Numbered from the stretch's first letter, positions 29,279 through 53,570 are shown. The stretch is DNA of 64,000 bases from an uncultured Gammaproteobacteria bacterium (GCA_964596525.1 CAZQUL010000001.1:396830-460829); one strand, 5' to 3'. The notes: generated by a model not told the origin, from the letters alone. Numbers and translations: made by a program.

Positions 29279-30532
29279 CTAGGGCAAAAGCTCTTTGAGA
29301 ATGTCGTACGGCCGGCTCTGTAGAAAGCGGCGAGCAGTATCTTGCACGACCGGGAAAGGAGATGACTTCGCTTCGCGCAACCGCTCGAGCGTTTCCTCTT
29401 CGTCACCATGATTCTCGACAAGATGGCAGAGCAGTTTCGCGCAGGGTTCGGCTATCCACTCCTTCGAGGAAGGTTCCGCGAGGAGAAGTTTGAGGAGTGT
29501 GTTGAGCAGACTCGGATCTTTATGGAACTCACGGATTTCCAGGACTTCTTGGAGTAAGCCGGGCCCGGCGAGTGCGGTGGTGACCAGGCTCCATACCCGG
29601 GCTTCATCCACCTTAAGAGAGAGCGCGATCCACGCTTCGGAAGCGAGAGGGTGCTCCTGGTGAATAAGGCGGGCGAGCGCTGTCGATGGCCACTTTTTGA
29701 AGTCGGGAAAACGCTTCGTCAGCTCGTCCATCACTTCGTCTGCGCAGATCTCTTCCTGGATCTCTTGGGCTGTGGTGAAGAAATCCAAGTTCGTGAAGAC
29801 GAATAGCGCGGCGCGGCGCTTTTCAGGGTCGAGGAGCCTGAGGATCTGGTGTTTTTTGGCAAGGCCGACTTGATTGCTCGGAAAGACAAATTTTTCGAGC
29901 ACTTCGGTGGCGAATTGTTCGCGGGGGCGGATGCGATGCATGAGGATCGCGTCCGCTACGAGATCGGCTGACACGGAGTGGAAGAGCAGGTACGACAGCG
30001 GATCGATGACGTTCGGCGCGTGGCGGTCGAACATGACGACAAGCAACGTGGCCCACTCTCTTTGATTATCGGACGATAGATACCTCAAGGTCCCGAGGAA
30101 GAGGTGGCTGAGCGTCTTTACGATGTACTGCCATGCTTCTTCGCGTGACAAAAGCTTGAGGGCGGCGATGTAAGCGTGGCCGTTGTAAGCGCCCTGGAGT
30201 TCGTTCAAGTTTCGGCAGGTTGTCTGGAAAGCGCACAGCTCATGAGCGACCTTTGTGCAGAGCTCGGGGGTAAATCCGGCTTGGTCGCTGAGGATGAAGT
30301 TGAGCAGGCCTGGCTTTGCGAATACGGCGCAGGGCTTGGTGCCGAACTGGGTGACGTGCGGCCGCAGTTCGCGATCGTAGGTGCGCAGAATATATTCCAT
30401 TGCCAACGAGCGCGTCTCAGGCAAGAGGTTGGTGTTGCGCACCACACCCTCCGCGATGTTTGACGGTATTTTTTGTTGATCGATCAGCTGGTTCCACAAA
30501 CTGCGTTCCGTTGCTGCACGGTTTTCGCTCAT
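29279..30532 (-). CDS. hypothetical helical-repeat protein
   Basis: Likely start MSENRAATERS. No motif. Confidence 0.4.
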   Translation of the reverse strand: MSENRAATERSLWNQLIDQQKIPSNIAEGVVRNTNLLPETRSLAMEYILRTYDRELRPHVTQFGTKPCAVFAKPGLLNFILSDQAGFTPELCTKVAHELCAFQTTCRNLNELQGAYNGHAYIAALKLLSREEAWQYIVKTLSHLFLGTLRYLSSDNQREWATLLVVMFDRHAPNVIDPLSYLLFHSVSADLVADAILMHRIRPREQFATEVLEKFVFPSNQVGLAKKHQILRLLDPEKRRAALFVFTNLDFFTTAQEIQEEICADEVMDELTKRFPDFKKWPSTALARLIHQEHPLASEAWIALSLKVDEARVWSLVTTALAGPGLLQEVLEIREFHKDPSLLNTLLKLLLAEPSSKEWIAEPCAKLLCHLVENHGDEEETLERLREAKSSPFPVVQDTARRFLQSRPYDILKELLP

Positions 30533-30684
30533 GGCAAGGGCTCCTTTTTGGTGGGTCAAAGATCGTTCAAGGCAACCGAATTGCAGACTGTACCAAAAGG
30601 TAGCTTGGTTTGTCAATCAAGCCAGAAGCATAGTTTTCAACCATCGCTTTGACGAATCTTTCGTCCCCGGACTACGATACAACT

Positions 30685-33983: not shown

Positions 33984-34055
33984 AGCGGGTGACGGGAGTC
34001 GAACCCGTGTCACCAGTTTGGAAAACTGGGATAATAGCCGTTATATGACACCCGC
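33984..34055 (-). tRNA. tRNA-Gly (anticodon UCC)
   Basis: Hand-folded cloverleaf: acceptor GCGGGTG/CACCCGC, anticodon stem CCAGT/ACTGG, loop UUUCCAA, T-arm ACGGG-TTCGACT-CCCGT, discriminator U. No encoded CCA. Confidence 0.7.
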
Positions 34056-42311: not shown

Positions 42312-43466
42312 ATGAACCTTTTTGAATACGAAGGAAAAAATCTTTTTGAAAAGTATGGTATCCGCGTTCCGCGCCGCGTGCTCGTTCGCTCTCTTAACGA
42401 GATTGAACTCGCGTATCGTTCCATTGGTGTTTCGGATGTTGTGGTTAAGGCGCAGATCCTTGCTGGCAAGCGCGGCAAAAGCGGTGGAGTGAAATTTTGC
42501 TCGACGCTACAAGAGGTGTGCGAAGCGGTTAGGATGCTCCTTGGTTCGGCAGTGCTCGGCTATAAGGTAAAGGCCGTGCTTATCGAAGAAAAACTCGCGA
42601 TTGCCGAAGAGCACTATCTCTCAATCAGTTACGATACTGCTGTGCGCGCTCCGCTTTTTGTATACAGTTCAGTCGGTGGCATGGAGATTGAAGACGCGCC
42701 AGAGACAGCACTTGTCCGCCGCCTTTGTGATGTGCGCAGCATTCACGCGCCTGGTAGCCAGCCTTTTGCAGCAGAAGCGTGGAAGTGCTTTTTGGCCGAG
42801 GATGCGCGCGTTGTCGAAATTAATCCGCTCGTTAAAACTACAAATGGTGAGTGGTATGCCGCAGATGCCAAAGTCGCGCTCGATGATGATGCTTTTTTCC
42901 GCCACCCGGAATGGAAAGACGTTGAGCCCCGCACCAGCCTGCCACGCCCTCCTACGGAACGCGAAAAGTCTGCTGCCACAATAGATGAAGGCGAGGCATA
43001 CTACCGCGGCACGGCGAGCAAATATATCGAGCTCGACGGCGATATTGCCATTCTTTTTTCCGGCGGTGGGGCTTCGATTGCGAACATGGACGCGCTTATA
43101 AAAGCGGGTGGAAAGCCAGCTAACTATACGGAATATTCCGGTAATCCGCCGCGTGAGAAAGTGGCTGCGCTTGCCCATGTTGTGCTGTCAAAGCCAGGCC
43201 TCAAAGGTCTTTGGATCGCGGGTGGCGTGGCGAATTTTACAGATGTCGCCGAGACGTTCCATGGTATCGTCGACACGCTCGACAACGTAAAGCCATCGTA
43301 CCCCATCGTCGTACGCCGCGCCGGACCGAACGAAGCGGAAGGGATGCGGATTATGAATGAATGCGCCGTGCGTAACGGATTGAGCATGAAGTTGTTTGGT
43401 AAAGAAACATCGATGAGCGCAACGGCTGAAGTGCTGATGGAGATGGTAAAAGAACAGCGTGCATAA
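42312..43466 (+). CDS. sucC: succinyl-CoA synthetase beta subunit-like (ATP-grasp) protein; candidate citryl-CoA synthetase large subunit
   Basis: Start MNLFEYEGKNLFEKYGIRVP. KAQILAGKRGKSGGVK. Full SucC architecture. Confidence 0.8.
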   Translation: MNLFEYEGKNLFEKYGIRVPRRVLVRSLNEIELAYRSIGVSDVVVKAQILAGKRGKSGGVKFCSTLQEVCEAVRMLLGSAVLGYKVKAVLIEEKLAIAEEHYLSISYDTAVRAPLFVYSSVGGMEIEDAPETALVRRLCDVRSIHAPGSQPFAAEAWKCFLAEDARVVEINPLVKTTNGEWYAADAKVALDDDAFFRHPEWKDVEPRTSLPRPPTEREKSAATIDEGEAYYRGTASKYIELDGDIAILFSGGGASIANMDALIKAGGKPANYTEYSGNPPREKVAALAHVVLSKPGLKGLWIAGGVANFTDVAETFHGIVDTLDNVKPSYPIVVRRAGPNEAEGMRIMNECAVRNGLSMKLFGKETSMSATAEVLMEMVKEQRA

Positions 43467-44283
43467 TTTTTTGCGTACTTCTAATCTTAAAATTCACATA
43501 GCTATGTTGCCCGCCCTTACTCTCGCCACTTCTTTAACTGGCACTCCGCTTCTTTGGAGTGCAGCCGATCGTCTCCGCCACCTCCACATCATCGGTAAAA
43601 GCGGTTCAGGCAAATCGACGCTCCTCGCCCACCTCGTGCGGCAAGATATCGAGTGCGGTACGGGTGTGCTTGTACTCGATCCGCACGGCGATCTTCTCGA
43701 TATGATCGAGAAAGAATTATCTCCCGATCATGCCGGAAAAGTGAGTCTTATCCGCATCATCGATGCGAATACGGCCGAAGCGCAGTGCCAGGCGATTGAT
43801 CTTGCTTCGATTCTGAATGGCGGAAAAACAACTCTTGTTAGTCTTGGCAAAGGACGTATCGGCGAAGAGCTTAGCACTCGCCTAGGGCGAGAACTTCTTG
43901 CTCGGTTTGTGGCCGCAATGCTCGCCCGGCGCGGAAAAGAAGAGGTTTCTCCCTGCGCGCTTTACCTCGACGAAGCACCCACCTGGTGGCACCAGGATCT
44001 TGAACCACTCCTCACTCAAGCGCGGAGCTCTGGCGTGAGTGTCACGCTCGCACATCAGTACCTTGAGCAGTTTGACGAGCCGACTACTGATCTTATTCTT
44101 GGTAATGTCGGTTTGATGGCTCTGTTTAGGATTGGCATGTATGATGCAGAACGTCTCGAACCCGAGGTAGCGCCTGCGTTCAACAGAGAAACACTCACGA
44201 CTCTGCCCGAACGCCATCTCATCATCAAGAACGCTTCGACGCGCGAAGTGCACGAAGGTGTTCTTGTGGCCTCCAAATTATAA
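43459..44283 (+). CDS. compact HerA/FtsK/TrwB-like P-loop ATPase
   Basis: HLHIIGKSGSGKSTLL (Walker A) followed by VLVLDPHGD. LYLDEAP (Walker B). QARSSGVSVTLAHQ matches the family motif. Confidence 0.5.
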   Translation: MHNFLRTSNLKIHIAMLPALTLATSLTGTPLLWSAADRLRHLHIIGKSGSGKSTLLAHLVRQDIECGTGVLVLDPHGDLLDMIEKELSPDHAGKVSLIRIIDANTAEAQCQAIDLASILNGGKTTLVSLGKGRIGEELSTRLGRELLARFVAAMLARRGKEEVSPCALYLDEAPTWWHQDLEPLLTQARSSGVSVTLAHQYLEQFDEPTTDLILGNVGLMALFRIGMYDAERLEPEVAPAFNRETLTTLPERHLIIKNASTREVHEGVLVASKL

Positions 44284-44292
44284 CTTATCTCT

Positions 44293-44745
44293 ATGTCCTC
44301 GTACTCCAAAAACCGCCACACCAATATTCCGGCAGCGTACGTCGTTTTCATGCATAATGATGACGTGCTTTTGCTGCGCCGTTACAACACCGGGTACCAA
44401 GATGGCAAGTATTCGCTTGTTGCCGGACATGTCGAAGCCGAAGAAAGTTTTAGCGCTGCAGCAGTGCGCGAAGCGCTCGAAGAGGCCGGAGTAGGCGTGG
44501 CCCCCGAAGATCTCGAATTTGCGCATATGACGCATCGTCGCGCCGAGGACAGCGAGCGCGTGGATGTGTTTTTCGTTGTCAGGAAATGGCACGGTGAGCT
44601 TACTAACCGCGAACCGGAAAAGTGCGATGACTTGTCGTGGTTCAATATCCGCAGCCTGCCGGACAATCTCATTCCCTATGTCCGCCAAGCTCTCGAAGCG
44701 ATCCGTGACAAAAAAGCATATAGTGAGTGGGGGTGGAAGAAGTAA
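44293..44745 (+). CDS. NUDIX hydrolase
   Basis: Nudix box GHVEAEESFSAAAVREALEEAGV. Confidence 0.8.
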   Translation: MSSYSKNRHTNIPAAYVVFMHNDDVLLLRRYNTGYQDGKYSLVAGHVEAEESFSAAAVREALEEAGVGVAPEDLEFAHMTHRRAEDSERVDVFFVVRKWHGELTNREPEKCDDLSWFNIRSLPDNLIPYVRQALEAIRDKKAYSEWGWKK

Positions 44746-44760
44746 TTTTTTTGGAGGAAT

Positions 44761-45654
44761 ATGGGCATCTTACTCTCGAAAAACATGACGGTTCTCGTGC
44801 AGGGCATGACCGGTAAAGAAGGCCAGAAAAATACGCGGGCAATGCTTGACTACCATACGAACGTTGTCGCTGGTGTTACGCCCGGTAAGGGTGGGCAAGA
44901 GGTGGAGAGCAAGCCGGTGTATAATTCCGTTCAGCAGGCGGTCGATAACCATGGATTATTTTCTGCCTCTGTCATTGTAGTACCCCCCTTTGCCGCCAAA
45001 GCGGCGATACTCGAAGCTATTAATGCCGGTATCCCGTTCATCAATATTTTGGTTGAACGTATTCCGCTTCAAGATGCAGCTTACTGCCTCGCCGCTGCGC
45101 GCGAACAACGTATCCGTCTCCTTGGCCCCAGTTCGCTCGGCGTGCTCGTTCCGGGCGTTGGGCGTCTCGGCGTTGTCGGAGGTCCGCTCGTCAACGAAAT
45201 TTTTACGCCCGGATCGGTTGGCATTATTTCGCGCTCTGGCGGTATGACAAACGAGTTGTCATGGCAGATGCGACGTGCGGGTTTTGGCCAGAGCGCGGCG
45301 GTGCATGTCGGGGGCGATCTTCTTATGGGTACAACATATGCCGAACTCCTTGAGCTCTTTGAAGCTGATCCGGCTACCAAGGTCGTTGCCATCTTCGGCG
45401 AGCATGGCGGGAGTTATGAATTTGAAATCGTCGAGCTTGTTAAGCCAAAAAAATTCACCAAACCACTCGCGGTATATATCGGCGGTAAATTCGCGAGTAT
45501 GTTTCCCGAAGGGATGACTGTTGGCCACGCGGGTGCGATCGTTGGGCGCGGGCAGGGCGCGAACGAGAAAGAACAAGCACTTAAAGAAGTAGGGGTGATG
45601 ATCGCAGAAAGGTATGAGGAGTTAGTGGAATTGGTGCGGCCTTACGCACAGTAA
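44761..45654 (+). CDS. sucD: succinyl-CoA synthetase alpha subunit-like (CoA-binding) protein; candidate citryl-CoA synthetase small subunit
   Basis: VLVQGMTGKEGQ. Phospho-His loop MTVGHAGAIV. Confidence 0.8.
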   Translation: MGILLSKNMTVLVQGMTGKEGQKNTRAMLDYHTNVVAGVTPGKGGQEVESKPVYNSVQQAVDNHGLFSASVIVVPPFAAKAAILEAINAGIPFINILVERIPLQDAAYCLAAAREQRIRLLGPSSLGVLVPGVGRLGVVGGPLVNEIFTPGSVGIISRSGGMTNELSWQMRRAGFGQSAAVHVGGDLLMGTTYAELLELFEADPATKVVAIFGEHGGSYEFEIVELVKPKKFTKPLAVYIGGKFASMFPEGMTVGHAGAIVGRGQGANEKEQALKEVGVMIAERYEELVELVRPYAQ

Positions 45655-45665
45655 TATCTAAATAT

Positions 45666-46106
45666 ATGAAAGCAGGTGTTGACCATGTTGGTGTAGCAGT
45701 AGCATTTTTTTGCCATGATGGTGCCGGTAATTTTTTGATGCACAAACGCAGTGAACGGTGCCGTGATGAACAAGGAACATGGGATATAGGCGGAGGAAAG
45801 CTCGAGTACGGAGAAACGATTGACGAGGCTGTCATGCGTGAACTTGCAGAAGAGTATGGTTGTGTGGGTAGTATCGAAGAACGCTTACCGCCGAATACCT
45901 ATCTACGTGTCGATGGCAACGAACGACGTCATTGGGTAATCATTCCGCACATCGTGCGCGTCAAGCGAGAAGATGCTAAACTGAACGATCCAGAGAGTAT
46001 GACCGAAATGGCCTGGTTTAAACTCGACTTTTTGCCCGAACCGCTCCATTCCGGAGTAAAGTCCGATATCGAGCGCTATGCGGCCTCTTTGCAAAAGTAT
46101 TGCTAA
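45666..46106 (+). CDS. NUDIX hydrolase (second copy)
   Basis: Nudix box GGGKLEYGETIDEAVMRELAEEYG. Confidence 0.8.
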   Translation: MKAGVDHVGVAVAFFCHDGAGNFLMHKRSERCRDEQGTWDIGGGKLEYGETIDEAVMRELAEEYGCVGSIEERLPPNTYLRVDGNERRHWVIIPHIVRVKREDAKLNDPESMTEMAWFKLDFLPEPLHSGVKSDIERYAASLQKYC

Positions 46107-46858
46107 GCGTTCCTCGTATGCACTTCACTACCGCTCTCTCCACTATCAAAGACGGCCGCGAAATCATCCGCGGCCTGCCGCTCGAAGAGCTTGTTAAAAC
46201 CAGAACGTTTCTCGAGAACGCGGTTTTTCTCATCCGCGGCACGTTTCCGGCTGCTGCCGAACTCAAACTCCTCAACATGGTTTTTTCGGCGGCTATTGAT
46301 CATGGCGTGGGTGCGCCCTCAACGACTGTAGCTCGCATCGCTGCTTCCACCAATTCAACCACTTCTAACCTGCACGCCATACTCGCGGCCGGTATTCTTA
46401 CTATGGGTGATCAGCATGGCGGAGCGATAGAAACCGCTGCCCGCATTTTTCTCGAACTCGCCGACCAGACCGACGACGCGCTTCGGTCGTGGCTTTCCGA
46501 CATGAAATTTATCAAGATGAAAGTTCCAGGGTTTGGCCATCGGGTTCTCGCTACTGATCACCGCGCCGAGTTGCTTCTTGCCCAAGCGGATGAGCTTGGT
46601 CTGTCTGGTAAAGCCTGTCGCGTAGCAGAGCGCATCCATAAACTCCTCAACGAATCATCGTCAAAACCGCTCCCCCTCAACATTGATGGCGCTATGGCGG
46701 CGGTGCTGGCAGATCTTGGGTTTGCACCCGAGTGTATGAAGGGCCTATTTATTTTTGCGCGCCTCCCCGGGCTTATCGCGCACTGTGTGGAGCAGGTCGG
46801 CAGCGGCGAAGGTGTAAAACGTCTTTCTTTGGACGAAGAGATATATACTGGACCGTAG
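46100..46858 (+). CDS. short citrate-synthase-family protein (citryl-CoA lyase-like, about 250 aa)
   Basis: Citrate synthase signatures: MGDQHGGAIE (HGG loop), GFGHRVL..DHRAE (G[FY]GHRV...DPR), NIDGAMAAVL, ARLPGLIAHCVEQ. Lacks the N-terminal approximately 120 aa of full citrate synthases. Confidence 0.65.
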   Translation: MLSVPRMHFTTALSTIKDGREIIRGLPLEELVKTRTFLENAVFLIRGTFPAAAELKLLNMVFSAAIDHGVGAPSTTVARIAASTNSTTSNLHAILAAGILTMGDQHGGAIETAARIFLELADQTDDALRSWLSDMKFIKMKVPGFGHRVLATDHRAELLLAQADELGLSGKACRVAERIHKLLNESSSKPLPLNIDGAMAAVLADLGFAPECMKGLFIFARLPGLIAHCVEQVGSGEGVKRLSLDEEIYTGP

Positions 46859-46863
46859 AGTAT

Positions 46864-47604
46864 ATGGAGTACATCAAAGAATATACCAAACTTACGCCGC
46901 AGGAATACCGCCAGCTGGCCTACAAACGGCGCTTCAAGCGCGATCAGCCTGCTTGGGACGATTCCATGATCAGGCTGCGCGATTGGTGTGGAACCTATAT
47001 CCCACGTGGCGCTACGCTGCTTGATTTTGGCTGTGGACGTGGTAACTTTGTCATCGATGAGCTCAAAGGCCATTTTGGTGCCACAACTGGTATCGATGTT
47101 AGTACCGAGGCAACCGAGGGCAACATCTCGGTTGACCGCGTAGCGATCGCTCCGCCGGGCGCCTTGCCGTTTCCTGATGCATCGTTTGATGCCGTAGTTT
47201 CTCTGTGGGTGCTCGAGCACCTGCCACGCCCTGTGGAAACGTTCGCCGACATCGCACGCGTGCTCAAACCCGGCGGCTACTTCGCGTTTGTTACGCCGAA
47301 TAAAAAATCGCTTCTCGTAACGCTGCGGCGCCTCATGCCGGACAAACTCTCTGATCGTCTCACCAGCTGGCTTTACGGTCGTACCGAAGACGATATTTTT
47401 GACGTGTATTATCGCGCCAATACCGCGCAAGATATCGCGGCGCTCGCCAAGCAGTCCGGTTTTCACATCGCTGTCTTAGAAGAAAACGCCGATCCGTCGT
47501 ACACATCGTTTAATACTTTTACTTACCGATTGTCGAGTTTTTTCAGCTGCCGCCCCTCGCCGTTTTTTAAACCGCATCTTATTGGAATGTTAAAAAAACG
47601 CTAG
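46864..47604 (+). CDS. class I SAM-dependent methyltransferase
   Basis: LLDFGCGRGN motif I. Methyltransf_11-like. Confidence 0.7.
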   Translation: MEYIKEYTKLTPQEYRQLAYKRRFKRDQPAWDDSMIRLRDWCGTYIPRGATLLDFGCGRGNFVIDELKGHFGATTGIDVSTEATEGNISVDRVAIAPPGALPFPDASFDAVVSLWVLEHLPRPVETFADIARVLKPGGYFAFVTPNKKSLLVTLRRLMPDKLSDRLTSWLYGRTEDDIFDVYYRANTAQDIAALAKQSGFHIAVLEENADPSYTSFNTFTYRLSSFFSCRPSPFFKPHLIGMLKKR

Positions 47605-47616
47605 ATTTTATTTTGT

Positions 47617-48504
47617 ATGTCTCACCCGTATTTTATTGAAACCGTGGAACCGTCAACCGATTACGAACTCCTTGACTCCGGCGACGGAGACAAGCTGGAA
47701 CGTTACGGTTCTATCGTAGTCGCGCGCCCGGATCCACAGGCGCTTTGGAAAAAACAGCACCCCGAAATCTGGAAGAAAGCTCAAGCGGTGTTTACGCGCG
47801 AAGGAAAAAACGGCGGTTGGAAATTTTTCGGTACCGTGCCAGAGCGCTGGGGAATCAATTTTGCGGGGCTCGGGTTCTACATCAAACCGACGTCGTTTAA
47901 ACATACCGGCCTCTTTCCCGAGCAAGCCACCAACTGGAGCTGGATGCAAAGCCTTATCCAAAAACGCGTTTCAAGCGGTCTCGAGCGCCCTATGGTGCTC
48001 AACCTGTTCGGGTACACCGGCGGGGCAACGCTTGCTTGTGCGAAAGCTGGTGCCGACGTGTGCCATGTCGACGGTTCAAAAACCGCGATCGGCTGGGGGC
48101 GTGACAATGCTGCGCTCTCCGGTCTCGTCGAAAAGCCGATCCGCTGGATACTCGACGACGCCGTGGCGTTCGTCCGACGCGAGATAAAACGCGGCCGAAA
48201 ATACGATGGCATCGTGCTCGATCCGCCCGCTTTCGGCCATGGACCCGATGGTGAAATGTGGAAGATTGAAAACGATTTCGTGCCGCTTCTTGATATGTGT
48301 TTCGAACTTCTTTCGGACCGCGCTTTGTTTTTCCTTATCAACGGTTATGCTTCGGGTTATTCCGCAGTGGCGTATGGGAATAATCTGTTCGCACTTCAAA
48401 AAAAACAAGGCGGCCGTATCGAAACCGGTGAACTGACCATCCGAGAAACGGACGGTGGTCGCTTGTTGCCGTGTGGTATTTTTGCGCGCTGGCAGAGTGT
48501 GTAA
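47617..48504 (+). CDS. RlmI/YccW-like SAM-dependent RNA (m5C) methyltransferase
   Basis: LNLFGYTGGATLACA, VLDPPAFG (DPPxF catalytic motif), upstream PUA-like region. Confidence 0.55.
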   Translation: MSHPYFIETVEPSTDYELLDSGDGDKLERYGSIVVARPDPQALWKKQHPEIWKKAQAVFTREGKNGGWKFFGTVPERWGINFAGLGFYIKPTSFKHTGLFPEQATNWSWMQSLIQKRVSSGLERPMVLNLFGYTGGATLACAKAGADVCHVDGSKTAIGWGRDNAALSGLVEKPIRWILDDAVAFVRREIKRGRKYDGIVLDPPAFGHGPDGEMWKIENDFVPLLDMCFELLSDRALFFLINGYASGYSAVAYGNNLFALQKKQGGRIETGELTIRETDGGRLLPCGIFARWQSV

Positions 48505-48607
48505 GGCGCTCCGTTCTTTGCTCTTTGCCTTGTTGTGTGGTATAGAAAAACACTACCTTTGTTTAGCGTGTTTGAGTGTCATCCGCGCGCCAGTTTTTAG
48601 CAAACGT

Positions 48608-49333
48608 ATGATCACATCCATTTTGGCTCCGGCAACAATCAGCCCAGAAACTACCATGCCGGTGGTTCTTTTTGAGGACAATCATACTCTTGCGGTCTAC
48701 AAACCGTACGGCTGGCTTACCCAAGGCGATCAAACCGGCGATATTAGTTTGCTCGATTGGGTTAAAGACTATCTTAAAACCACGTATCATAAGCCGGGCA
48801 ATGTTTTTGTCGGCCTTGTCCATCGGCTCGATCGGCCAGTGGCTGGTATCGTAGTCTTTGCCAAAACAAGCAAAGGCGCAAGCCGCTTATCCGAGCAGTT
48901 TCGCGCCCACACCGTTACCAAGCGCTACCAAGCTCTTGTTGAAGGGAGTGTCGCTGCCGAGCGTGCCACGCTCATACATTTTCTCAGTAAAAACGAACGC
49001 ACTAATACGGTTACGGCGTACAATGCTCCTACTTTAGGAGCGCTCCGTTGTGAATTGCAATATCGCGTTTTGGAGCGCTCCGCATCTGCCACGCTCGTTG
49101 AAATAGAGCTGAAAACTGGTCGTAGTCATCAGATCCGCGCCCAATTTGCGGCTATCGGGCACCCCCTTTGCGGTGATGTAAAGTATGGTGCCACACAACC
49201 TTTTATGCCACGTGCCCTAGCCTTAGTAGCCGAGCATCTTGTATTCAGCAAGGTGGCAGGGGAGGGAGGGGTGGTCATTACGCTGCCACGTTTTTTTAAA
49301 ATGCGAGGTAAAACCATCACCGTCACTCATTGA
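48608..49333 (+). CDS. RluA-family pseudouridine synthase
   Basis: Start MITSIL. GLVHRLDRPVAGIVVFAKT catalytic Asp motif. Confidence 0.75.
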   Translation: MITSILAPATISPETTMPVVLFEDNHTLAVYKPYGWLTQGDQTGDISLLDWVKDYLKTTYHKPGNVFVGLVHRLDRPVAGIVVFAKTSKGASRLSEQFRAHTVTKRYQALVEGSVAAERATLIHFLSKNERTNTVTAYNAPTLGALRCELQYRVLERSASATLVEIELKTGRSHQIRAQFAAIGHPLCGDVKYGATQPFMPRALALVAEHLVFSKVAGEGGVVITLPRFFKMRGKTITVTH

Positions 49334-49419: not shown

Positions 49420-49839
49420 ATGAAATCCTTACTTTTCCACTGCAGAAATTACCGTACGCGCGTCGGGGAACTCGCTGATCGTCCAGCAACGATCTGTCCT
49501 GAACCGGTAGGTGAGCGCGAACGGTTCTGCCACGACTGCGTCGTTGCTCTCATTACGGTCGAGCGGGGCGATGTTGTTGACGAAGTTGCTGAAAAAATGG
49601 CCCGCGAGATAGAAAAAATGGCCCGTGACGTGGGGCGAACAAAAATCGTTTTGCTGCCCTTTGCCCACCTATCGAGTTCGCTCGCCGATTCTACCACCGG
49701 TATCGCCGCCATCAAACGCATTGCCGAACATGTATCTAGTGCCGCGCTTGATGTAGAACGTGGGCATTTCGGATCGCACAAAGAACTCCTTATCGATCTC
49801 TACGGGCACCCCGGCAATACGCGCTTCCGTGAATTCTAA
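49420..49839 (+). CDS. free-standing archaeal-type threonyl-tRNA synthetase editing-domain homologue (tRNA-Thr_ED / DTD-like fold)
   Basis: MKSLLFHCRNYRTRV..., CVVALITVERGDVV, KIVLLPFAHLSSSLAD and GHFGSHKELLIDLYGHPG align with the archaeal ThrRS editing-domain pattern (M.LLLIHSDY.EY...vLvafvsVEkgDe...rivlYPyAHLSs.La...FGwyK...GHP). Alignment made from memory. Confidence 0.5.
   Translation: MKSLLFHCRNYRTRVGELADRPATICPEPVGERERFCHDCVVALITVERGDVVDEVAEKMAREIEKMARDVGRTKIVLLPFAHLSSSLADSTTGIAAIKRIAEHVSSAALDVERGHFGSHKELLIDLYGHPGNTRFREF

Positions 49840-53338: not shown

Positions 53339-53340
<2 letters not shown>
53303..53340. terminator. hairpin terminator (CACAACAACACTCCC-TTTC-GGGAGTGTTGTG) shared by the convergent AI-2E gene and the tRNA operon
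   Basis: 12-15 bp perfect stem directly abutting the tRNA-Met 3' end. Confidence 0.5.

Positions 53341-53412
<72 letters not shown>

Positions 53413-53497: not shown

Positions 53498-53570
<73 letters not shown>

Follow-up and report, generated by a model that had tools for sequence, protein, structure and literature searches.

A probable two-enzyme citrate-cleaving system, parted by cargo genes, in an apparent candidate phyla radiation bacterium

A 64,000-nucleotide stretch of DNA from an uncultured bacterium (GCA_964596525.1, CAZQUL010000001.1:396830-460829; the whole stretch is referred to as the window) carries three genes that probably encode a two-enzyme system for the ATP-dependent cleavage of citrate. 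By sequence, the SucC-like and SucD-like products would be the large and small subunits of a citryl-CoA synthetase (CCS, genes ccsA and ccsB), and a short protein with the citrate-synthase fold would be the citryl-CoA lyase (CCL, gene ccl), the trio forming an unfused counterpart of ATP-citrate lyase (ACL) that converts citrate to acetyl-CoA. We put the probability of this reading at roughly 0.7. The source genome appears to be that of a tiny-genome bacterium belonging to the candidate phyla radiation (CPR), or Patescibacteria. A first-pass annotation, made from the sequence alone, had already proposed CCS plus CCL for this locus, and the proposal is supported, since the beta subunit falls outside the ordinary succinyl-CoA synthetases (SCS) and the short protein keeps the catalytic His and Asp of its family.

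The module was known and annotated before, and recognising it at this locus is a correct annotation rather than a discovery. Its description as an unexpected module went too far, as trios of this kind abound in the genomes of CPR and DPANN members and have been annotated and published before. At JGI some relatives bear the name 'citryl-CoA synthetase large subunit', and 'citryl-CoA lyase' is used for others at both NCBI and JGI. According to a 2022 preprint (10.1101/2022.10.25.513756), sequences from CPR and DPANN that carry SCS or citrate-synthase annotations are monophyletic with CCS and CCL, and for metagenome-assembled genomes of ACL-bearing Patescibacteria and DPANN archaea it has been proposed that citrate is imported and turned into acetyl-CoA plus oxaloacetate (PMC13014828, 2026).

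By its sequence, catalytic residues and predicted fold, the short protein is best taken as a citryl-CoA lyase. It matches the Pfam family Citrate_synt (E 3e-38) and contains the motifs HGGA, GFGHRV, DHR, NIDGA and FARLPGLIAHCVEQ, so that the citrate-synthase signatures credited to it (the HGG loop, GFGHRV and DHR) are all there. The best NCBIfam model is NF004869, citryl-CoA lyase, with 195.3 bits, under the cutoff of 212, and close relatives bear the name 'citryl-CoA lyase' at NCBI. Among PDB sequences the CCL of Hydrogenobacter thermophilus (6hxp) ranks first with 123 bits, followed by the best citrate synthase with 73 and the CCL module of Chlorobium ACL with 64. As many as 62-63 of 63 family members share the catalytic and ligand residues H100, H141, R149, D190 and R215 (numbered on the 246-aa protein); these are the equivalents of His274, His320, Arg329, Asp375 and Arg401 of pig citrate synthase, in the established numbering of that enzyme. 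The fold core and this His/His/Asp/Arg set are common to citrate synthase and 2-methylcitrate synthase (PF00285), but the window protein is about 120-180 residues shorter than citrate synthase and has a DHG motif, IDHGVGAPS, which resembles IDHGIAPPS of CCL and ADHGPAVSG of ACL rather than EHE.NAST of citrate synthase.

The predicted structure points the same way. An AlphaFold (AF2) model of the short protein (pLDDT 95, pTM 0.90) has 6hxp as its top Foldseek match (TM 0.90/0.87, root-mean-square deviation 1.9 Å), followed by about 40 CCL modules from Chlorobium, human and Methanothrix ACLs (TM 0.82-0.88), and citrate synthases rank below all of these modules (TMq <=0.74, target coverage <=0.50). 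The length of the protein is kept at 226-268 aa among the matches listed. The statement that it lacks the N-terminal third of citrate synthase is roughly right: alignments begin near citrate-synthase residues 130-150, and there is a weak second match of its residues 12-50 to citrate-synthase residues 23-61.

The beta subunit has in common with SucC the superfamily, the two-subunit organization and the ATP-grasp and phospho-histidine mechanism, but differs from it in domain content, substrate loop, family scores and phylogeny. It matches ATP-grasp_2 (PF08442, E 2e-39), over positions 1-135 only of the 202-position Pfam model, and its C-terminal half matches PF16114, 'ATP citrate lyase citrate-binding' (E 4e-31, 108 bits), in place of the Ligase_CoA domain usual in SucC, for which Pfam returned no match. 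When compared with all PDB sequences, the whole protein scores highest against H. thermophilus CcsA (6hxq_B, 219 bits), then Chlorobium AclB (163) and the best SCS-beta (158); the C-terminal domain alone gives the order CcsA (108), AclB (90), human ACLY (75), Methanothrix ACL (69) and SCS-beta (<=61). The NCBIfam cutoff for SCS-beta is not reached (245 vs 370 bits). The Mg-ATP residues N171 and D185 and the motifs EYSGNP (residues 274-279), ANFT (307-310, nt 43230-43241) and RR (335-336, nt 43314-43319) are kept in 75-79 of 79 relatives. EYSGNP, ANFT and VRR are of the ACL type, whereas SCS has D[IV]GGGA, FGGI[TV]R and V[MV]R[VL] at the corresponding positions; the substrate loop reads GGVANFTD, and the FGGI[TV]R loop of SCS is not there. 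Residues G309, N346, T348 and R379 of human ACLY align with the identical G277, N308, T310 and R336 of the window protein, at positions conserved in 77-79 of 79 relatives. Foldseek with the beta model puts CCS at the top, yet SCS, CCS and ACL chains all reach TM ~0.7, and this comparison does not discriminate because the two domains are flexibly arranged.

Phylogeny separates the beta subunit from SCS. A neighbour-joining (NJ) tree was built from 61 taxa and 383 columns, which included reference sequences and hits of an exhaustive search over 1.84 billion representatives; in 100 of 100 bootstraps the window protein, Hydrogenobacter CcsA and Chlorobium AclB exclude the SCS-beta of Thermus and E. 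coli. Within the CcsA/AclB clade Hydrogenobacter CcsA is basal, and the CPR/DPANN sequences group with AclB in 83 of 100 replicates, a grouping that matches their ACL-type motifs (ANFT and EYSGNP, vs ANNT and DIGGNP in Hydrogenobacter CcsA). The beta subunits of the CPR/DPANN trio may thus be more AclB-like than the CcsA of Aquificae, provisionally so, as the tree is an NJ tree and the AclB branch is long. Strict monophyly of the motif class was recovered in 0 of 100 bootstraps, a few motif variants nesting inside the ACL/CCS clade. Several SucC-like groups that lie between SCS and this clade carry other substrate-loop motifs (such as NVxNNTR, NITNNTQ and SGVV.-Q; for example P0252, P0206, P0177, P0255, P0170, P0237 and P0202) and are possibly acyl-CoA synthetases of other specificity.

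The alpha subunit is a SucD-like protein with the Pfam domains CoA_binding (PF02629) and Ligase_CoA/Succ_CoA_lig (PF00549/PF13607). The phospho-histidine loop GHAGA noted in the first reading is present at residues 255-259, with the catalytic His256 at nt 45526-45528, and the phospho-histidine is invariant in 71 of 71 relatives. In the PDB the protein scores 231-209 bits against archaeal and bacterial SCS-alpha, 200 against CcsB and 138 against AclA, and with 279 vs 336 bits it is under the NCBIfam cutoff for SCS-alpha; its likeness to SCS-alpha is about that of any CcsB. Its assignment as CcsB is drawn from its position between ccsA and ccl, which never varies.

This constancy of gene order was seen over a wide range of organisms. 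The beta subunit has 7311 relatives with E below 1e-10, of which the closest organism-named ones belong mostly to Candidatus Magasanikbacteria and other Patescibacteria. Scanning one genome per species gave 80 loci, from Magasanik-, Kerfeld-, Jorgensen-, Nomura-, Curtiss- and Daviesbacteria and Microgenomates among the bacteria, and from Micrarchaeota, Iainarchaeum, Nanoarchaeia, Woesearchaeota and Nanohaloarchaea among the DPANN archaea. Wherever a locus extends as far as ccl, which is so in 69, the genes stand on one strand in the order ccsA, ccsB, ccl (69 of 69), in CPR phyla and DPANN archaea alike. A beta subunit of the window type is always followed by a CCL gene, unlike SucC/SucD.

Among known systems, the CcsA/CcsB and Ccl of H. 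thermophilus (Aquificae; 6HXQ and 6HXP) are the nearest in layout, likewise combining a SucC-like and a SucD-like subunit with a separate short lyase of the citrate-synthase fold. They give the best PDB matches for the beta subunit and the CCL and the best fold match for the latter, and their catalytic residues are kept in the window proteins. The two systems differ in the substrate-loop motifs given above, in the ATP-grasp linker, which is shorter in CPR beta subunits, in the alpha subunit, 297 aa here and 353 aa in the CcsB chain of the PDB entry, and in the cargo genes that often part the CPR-type genes. In Aquificae, CCS/CCL serves the reductive tricarboxylic acid (TCA) cycle and autotrophy, whereas the 64-kb window holds no TCA-cycle enzyme other than the trio. 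AclB/AclA of Chlorobium limicola (6HXJ) and Methanothrix (6HXI) and the fused human ACLY share PF16114 and the motifs ANFT, EYSG[ND]P and VRRxGPN with the beta subunit, and their overall chemistry and the fold of their CCL module are alike. In ACL, however, the alpha subunit ends in a fused CCL module, while in the window the CCL is a separate gene beyond a stop codon and a Nudix gene, and elsewhere it sometimes lies kilobases away; moreover, AclA is far less similar to the window alpha subunit and CCL than are SCS-alpha and Hydrogenobacter CCL, respectively. By sequence, the window system would work like ACL but is not ACL in architecture.

The trio is embedded in a run of six plus-strand open reading frames (ORFs) whose tight packing, with gaps of 9-37 bp in the ORF reading of the window, is as first described (Table 1). 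All six genes, in unchanged order, are also present in a Logan assembly made independently from run SRR11567520. Two starts had to be moved, although both genes are real: the gene caller and the N-termini of homologues shift that of the CCL gene from TTG at 46100 (252 aa) to the ATG at 46118, and that of the ATPase gene from GTG at 43459 to 43504.

Table 1. Genes of the citrate-cleavage locus, the genes downstream of it and the tRNA genes of the window
Feature	Position	Strand	Description
ccsA-like (SucC-like), 384 aa	42312-43466	+	beta/large subunit of putative citryl-CoA synthetase; ATP-grasp and ACL-type citrate-binding domain
small P-loop ATPase, 259 aa	43504-44283	+	inserted cargo gene; shortened VirD4/TraD type
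Nudix 1, 150 aa	44293-44745	+	inserted cargo gene; MutT-like; PF00293, E 3e-20
ccsB-like (SucD-like), 297 aa	44761-45654	+	putative alpha/small subunit; CoA-binding domain, phospho-histidine loop GHAGA
Nudix 2, 146 aa	45666-46106	+	inserted cargo gene; PF00293, E 1e-16
ccl, 246 aa	46118-46858	+	predicted citryl-CoA lyase; short citrate-synthase-fold protein
class-I SAM methyltransferase	46864-47604	+	Pfam; start from gene call on Logan assembly
PF10672 SAM methyltransferase (MT2)	47617-48504	+	Pfam
RluA-type pseudouridine synthase	ends 49333	+	Pfam; after MT2
tRNA genes, four	33984-34055, 53339-53412, 53498-53570, 59926-59997	- (all)	Rfam

The separation of sucC from sucD, which had been thought unusual, is true of this genome but is not peculiar to it; it is a general, lineage-variable trait of the operon. 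The gap between ccsA and ccsB is <=150 bp in 39 of 78 loci and >500 bp in 26 of 78, and that between ccsB and ccl is <=150 bp in 41 of 69 and >500 bp in 25 of 69. None of the 80 related loci has the ATPase or the two Nudix genes of the window at these positions, and the cargo there is mixed (TPM-phosphatase with LemA, AdoMet decarboxylase, HAD hydrolases, methyltransferases, a phosphoribosyltransferase, other Nudix genes and unknowns). In the closest relatives on long contigs, which are 73% identical, 5.7 and 7.4 kb of different cargo lie between ccsA and ccsB. The three genes are lineage-specific cargo at two insertion-prone junctions and not parts of the enzyme system.

The ATPase has a Walker A motif (GKSGSGKST) and a Walker B motif (LYLDEA) and gives weak DUF87, TrwB_AAD_bind and TraG-D_C matches in Pfam and NCBIfam. 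It is indeed a compact P-loop ATPase between sucC and sucD, but the name HerA/FtsK-like fits less well than that of a shortened VirD4/TraD-type, or type IV coupling protein-like, ATPase; its homologues are normally soluble proteins of 390-440 aa annotated 'type IV secretion system DNA-binding domain'. Only two other short versions (262 aa) were found. One of them, in L087 and 51% identical, also lies downstream of ccsA, within a larger island, for which reason the position is old in this sublineage and the window holds a reduced form of the island. The Nudix genes stand where they were first placed, one between sucC and sucD and the other between sucD and the CCL-like gene; Nudix 1 reaches no curated NCBIfam cutoff, and the FPGG-type signature of CoA-pyrophosphatase Nudix proteins is in neither sequence on reading, by which that specificity was rejected. 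The idea that the ATPase and Nudix genes form a defence system was also discarded, PADLOC giving only weak matches (mad8, 45 bits; PDC-S07, 34-42 bits).

Other cargo was recorded in the sublineage closest to the window. A Hexapep (LbetaH) acetyltransferase and a pentapeptide-repeat protein lie just upstream of ccsB in two loci (L084:13306-14732 and L085:15087-16530) and at a contig end in L087 (12554-13979). This acetyltransferase was set aside as evidence on acetyl-CoA, being confined to one sublineage in a pair that looks like a xenobiotic acetyltransferase with a Qnr-like protein. Directly after ccsA, a relative with 73% identity has a 1338-aa protein for which no Pfam hit is recorded (L084:9173-13189).

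Genes around the trio in relatives suggest a use for its product. In the Magasanikbacteria-type loci (L001-L065 and L071; for example L018:783-10002 and L035:2250-11710), a co-directional block lies directly upstream of the trio, beginning with TrmB, a HAD protein, a nucleotidyltransferase corresponding to the N-terminal part of GlmU, and GlmS, and continuing with YvcK, a 112-aa GNAT acetyltransferase and then ccsA, ccsB and ccl; a beta-PGM-family HAD gene may stand between GlmS and YvcK, and MT2 and RluA between GNAT and ccsA. Counting loci with enough upstream sequence, GNAT is present in 49 of 55, YvcK in 48 of 50, GlmS in 42 of 44 and the nucleotidyltransferase in 29 of 42. The nucleotidyltransferase aligns with no more of the 447-position GlmU model than positions 2-234 and is without the acetyltransferase half, which the stand-alone GNAT may replace in a non-canonical pathway to UDP-N-acetylglucosamine (UDP-GlcNAc). 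Between the nucleotidyltransferase and GlmS, two alternative inserts occupy the same place: a three-subunit 2-oxoacid:ferredoxin oxidoreductase (OFOR, alpha-beta-gamma) in about 7-8 of 66 block loci (L005, L010, L022, L030, L031, L037, L048, L054), and Kbl, glycine C-acetyltransferase, in 9 of 66 (L006, L008, L013, L014, L017, L021, L047, L061, L064). YvcK and Kbl score above curated NCBIfam cutoffs. Furthermore, in the distant lineage of L070 an archaeal-type bifunctional GlmU ends exactly at the start of ccsA.

Further neighbours recur. In about 32-33 related loci MT2 and RluA adjoin the trio, either on its upstream side next to ccsA or on its downstream side next to ccl, and in the window (47617-49333) as in those loci the pair acts as a two-gene module. 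The commonest downstream neighbour, in 36 loci (for example L016:9869-11155), is a 428-aa TIGR00375-family protein with no Pfam match at E 1e-4 or better. In a Candidatus Iainarchaeum locus (DPANN; L067:13123-14538) ccl is followed by an aspartate ammonia-lyase above its NCBIfam cutoff, which ties this copy of the trio to the metabolism of aspartate and C4-dicarboxylates.

The mechanism proposed for the system has five steps. CcsA, with its ATP-grasp and citrate-binding domains, and CcsB, with its CoA-binding domain and His256, would assemble as citryl-CoA synthetase. His256 would be phosphorylated by ATP held in the ATP-grasp domain, and the phospho-histidine loop would swing to a citrate site formed by the EYSG, ANFT and RR loops to give citryl phosphate, which CoA would attack to yield citryl-CoA. 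The separate CCL would then carry out a retro-Claisen cleavage with its citrate-synthase-like His/His/Asp machinery, releasing acetyl-CoA and oxaloacetate. In a CPR cell without a TCA cycle, citrate taken from a host or the environment would in this way provide acetyl-CoA, with oxaloacetate as second product, and the acetyl-CoA would be used above all for N-acetylation of cell-wall amino sugars. Acetyl-CoA from scavenged citrate is probably the product of the trio, a reading of the sequence data that is backed by the independent proposal in PMC13014828. A role in acetyl-CoA supply, especially for UDP-GlcNAc, is favoured because the trio of relatives adjoins amino-sugar genes and an acetyltransferase, with OFOR or Kbl inserts; the Magasanikbacteria-type synteny suggests that the trio supplies acetyl-CoA for amino-sugar acetylation.

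Other explanations were weighed against citrate cleavage. That an ordinary SucCD pair merely sits beside a truncated, non-functional citrate synthase, any likeness to CCS/CCL being superficial, might be read from the alpha subunit, which scores best against SCS-alpha, and from the top-named NCBIfam hit of the beta subunit, which is SCS-beta. For the beta subunit and the CCL this is refuted by the tests above: the former has the citrate-binding domain, is without the FGGI[TV]R loop, fails the SCS-beta cutoff and is set apart from SCS in every bootstrap, and a decaying remnant is incompatible with a short protein that keeps its length, its invariant catalytic residues and a confidently modelled CCL fold. 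We therefore regard this explanation as extremely improbable. Homologues of CCS and CCL might also act on another acid, such as malate (through malyl-CoA), citramalate or 2-methylcitrate, and yield acetyl-CoA or propionyl-CoA with another 2-oxo acid. The CPR/DPANN clade is distinct from that of Hydrogenobacter, the only biochemically characterised CCS/CCL, the wider SucC-like superfamily holds many variant substrate-loop motifs, and all three proteins of the trio fall below the curated NCBIfam cutoffs of their best families. Yet the positions aligned with the four ACLY residues, which Sun et al. 2010 reportedly identified as citrate contacts, are near-invariant, as are the CCL equivalents of the oxaloacetate-binding Arg329 and Arg401 of citrate synthase, and ANFT and EYSG are identical to the motifs of bona fide ACL, so that a different substrate seems quite unlikely. 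Should the ATPase and Nudix genes be functional partners, for instance with a Nudix enzyme hydrolysing CoA derivatives, one would understand why the short ATPase recurs downstream of ccsA in L087 and why several loci unrelated to one another have Nudix genes in or beside the trio (5 of the 9 Nudix ORFs; odds ratio ~4, one-sided p = 0.04, marginal and uncorrected). Their absence from these positions in the other loci, half of which have no insert at all, the great diversity of junction cargo elsewhere, the lack of a CoA-pyrophosphatase signature, the marginal enrichment and the weak defence matches make such a partnership distinctly improbable.

The same three enzymes might instead run in reverse, as an ATP-yielding citrate synthase in which acetyl-CoA and oxaloacetate form citryl-CoA and then citrate and CoA while ADP and Pi give ATP; a fermentative CPR cell would then gain substrate-level phosphorylation and excrete citrate. 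The OFOR, Kbl and malic enzyme found in the same block of some relatives could make the substrates locally, and reverse use of ATP-citrate lyase has reportedly been described in Desulfobacter. However, the strongest and commonest neighbours of the trio consume acetyl-CoA or belong to amino-sugar metabolism (GNAT, GlmS, truncated GlmU, YvcK) and are not fermentation genes, OFOR and Kbl are rare among block loci, a source of oxaloacetate is questionable in organisms without a TCA cycle, and simpler ways of making ATP from acetyl-CoA are usual in CPR bacteria. We consider this direction unlikely and prefer cleavage of citrate, against which several observations nevertheless count. The ACL/CCS reaction is near equilibrium and could run backward, and all three proteins score below the cutoffs of their families. 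By score, the alpha subunit alone is not separable from SCS-alpha, which ranks above CcsB. No citrate transporter was found within the 64-kb window. The role in acetylation is drawn from relatives, because the window locus is without the GlmS/YvcK/GNAT block and has adk and hypothetical genes upstream instead. A promoter and terminator scan of 40.5-50 kb gave no clear operon boundaries, with counts near shuffled expectation (15 promoters vs 8.3 expected; 13 terminators vs 12.2), and the shared strand is weak evidence for co-transcription because CPR genomes have long co-directional gene runs.

The remainder of the window contains housekeeping genes, a PGM/PMM-family mutase, a PfkB kinase, a Mur ligase and similar genes, and an Rfam scan of the window found no family besides tRNA at gathering score. 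A stand-alone 139-aa protein (49420-49839, plus strand) resembles PF08915, the archaea-specific editing domain of threonyl-tRNA synthetase (85 bits), and is encoded in a genome that appears to be bacterial (CPR). Large ORFs without a Pfam match at E 1e-5 or better lie at 12798-15500 (minus strand, 900 aa), 29279-30616 (minus strand, 445 aa) and 60085-61383 (plus strand, 432 aa).

A limited literature search did not find the UDP-GlcNAc/GNAT synteny, the AclB-like unfused beta subunits or the insertion hot spots at the junctions. These features lead to a broader idea, which we hold tentatively and think somewhat doubtful as a whole: the CPR/DPANN trio may be an extant unfused form between the CCS/CCL of Aquificae and ACL, with a beta subunit already like AclB and a CCL still separate, and in Magasanikbacteria-type CPR bacteria it may at the same time be a dedicated acetyl-CoA source for a non-canonical UDP-GlcNAc pathway, made up of GlmS, the stand-alone GNAT, the shortened GlmU and YvcK and fed by host citrate. 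If this is true, a 'carbon-fixation' enzyme would have been repurposed for cell-wall building in an obligate symbiont. The AclB-like unfused beta subunits bear on the origin of ATP-citrate lyase from CCS/CCL. In addition, surveys that score ccs, ccl and acl as markers of the reductive TCA cycle will count heterotrophic symbionts as false positives. Metabolism in CPR bacteria and in DPANN archaea is much reduced and the source of their acetyl-CoA poorly understood; a citrate-cleaving module offers a concrete and testable route, its synteny with amino-sugar genes suggests what the acetyl-CoA is used for, and citrate becomes a candidate metabolite in the exchange between host and symbiont.

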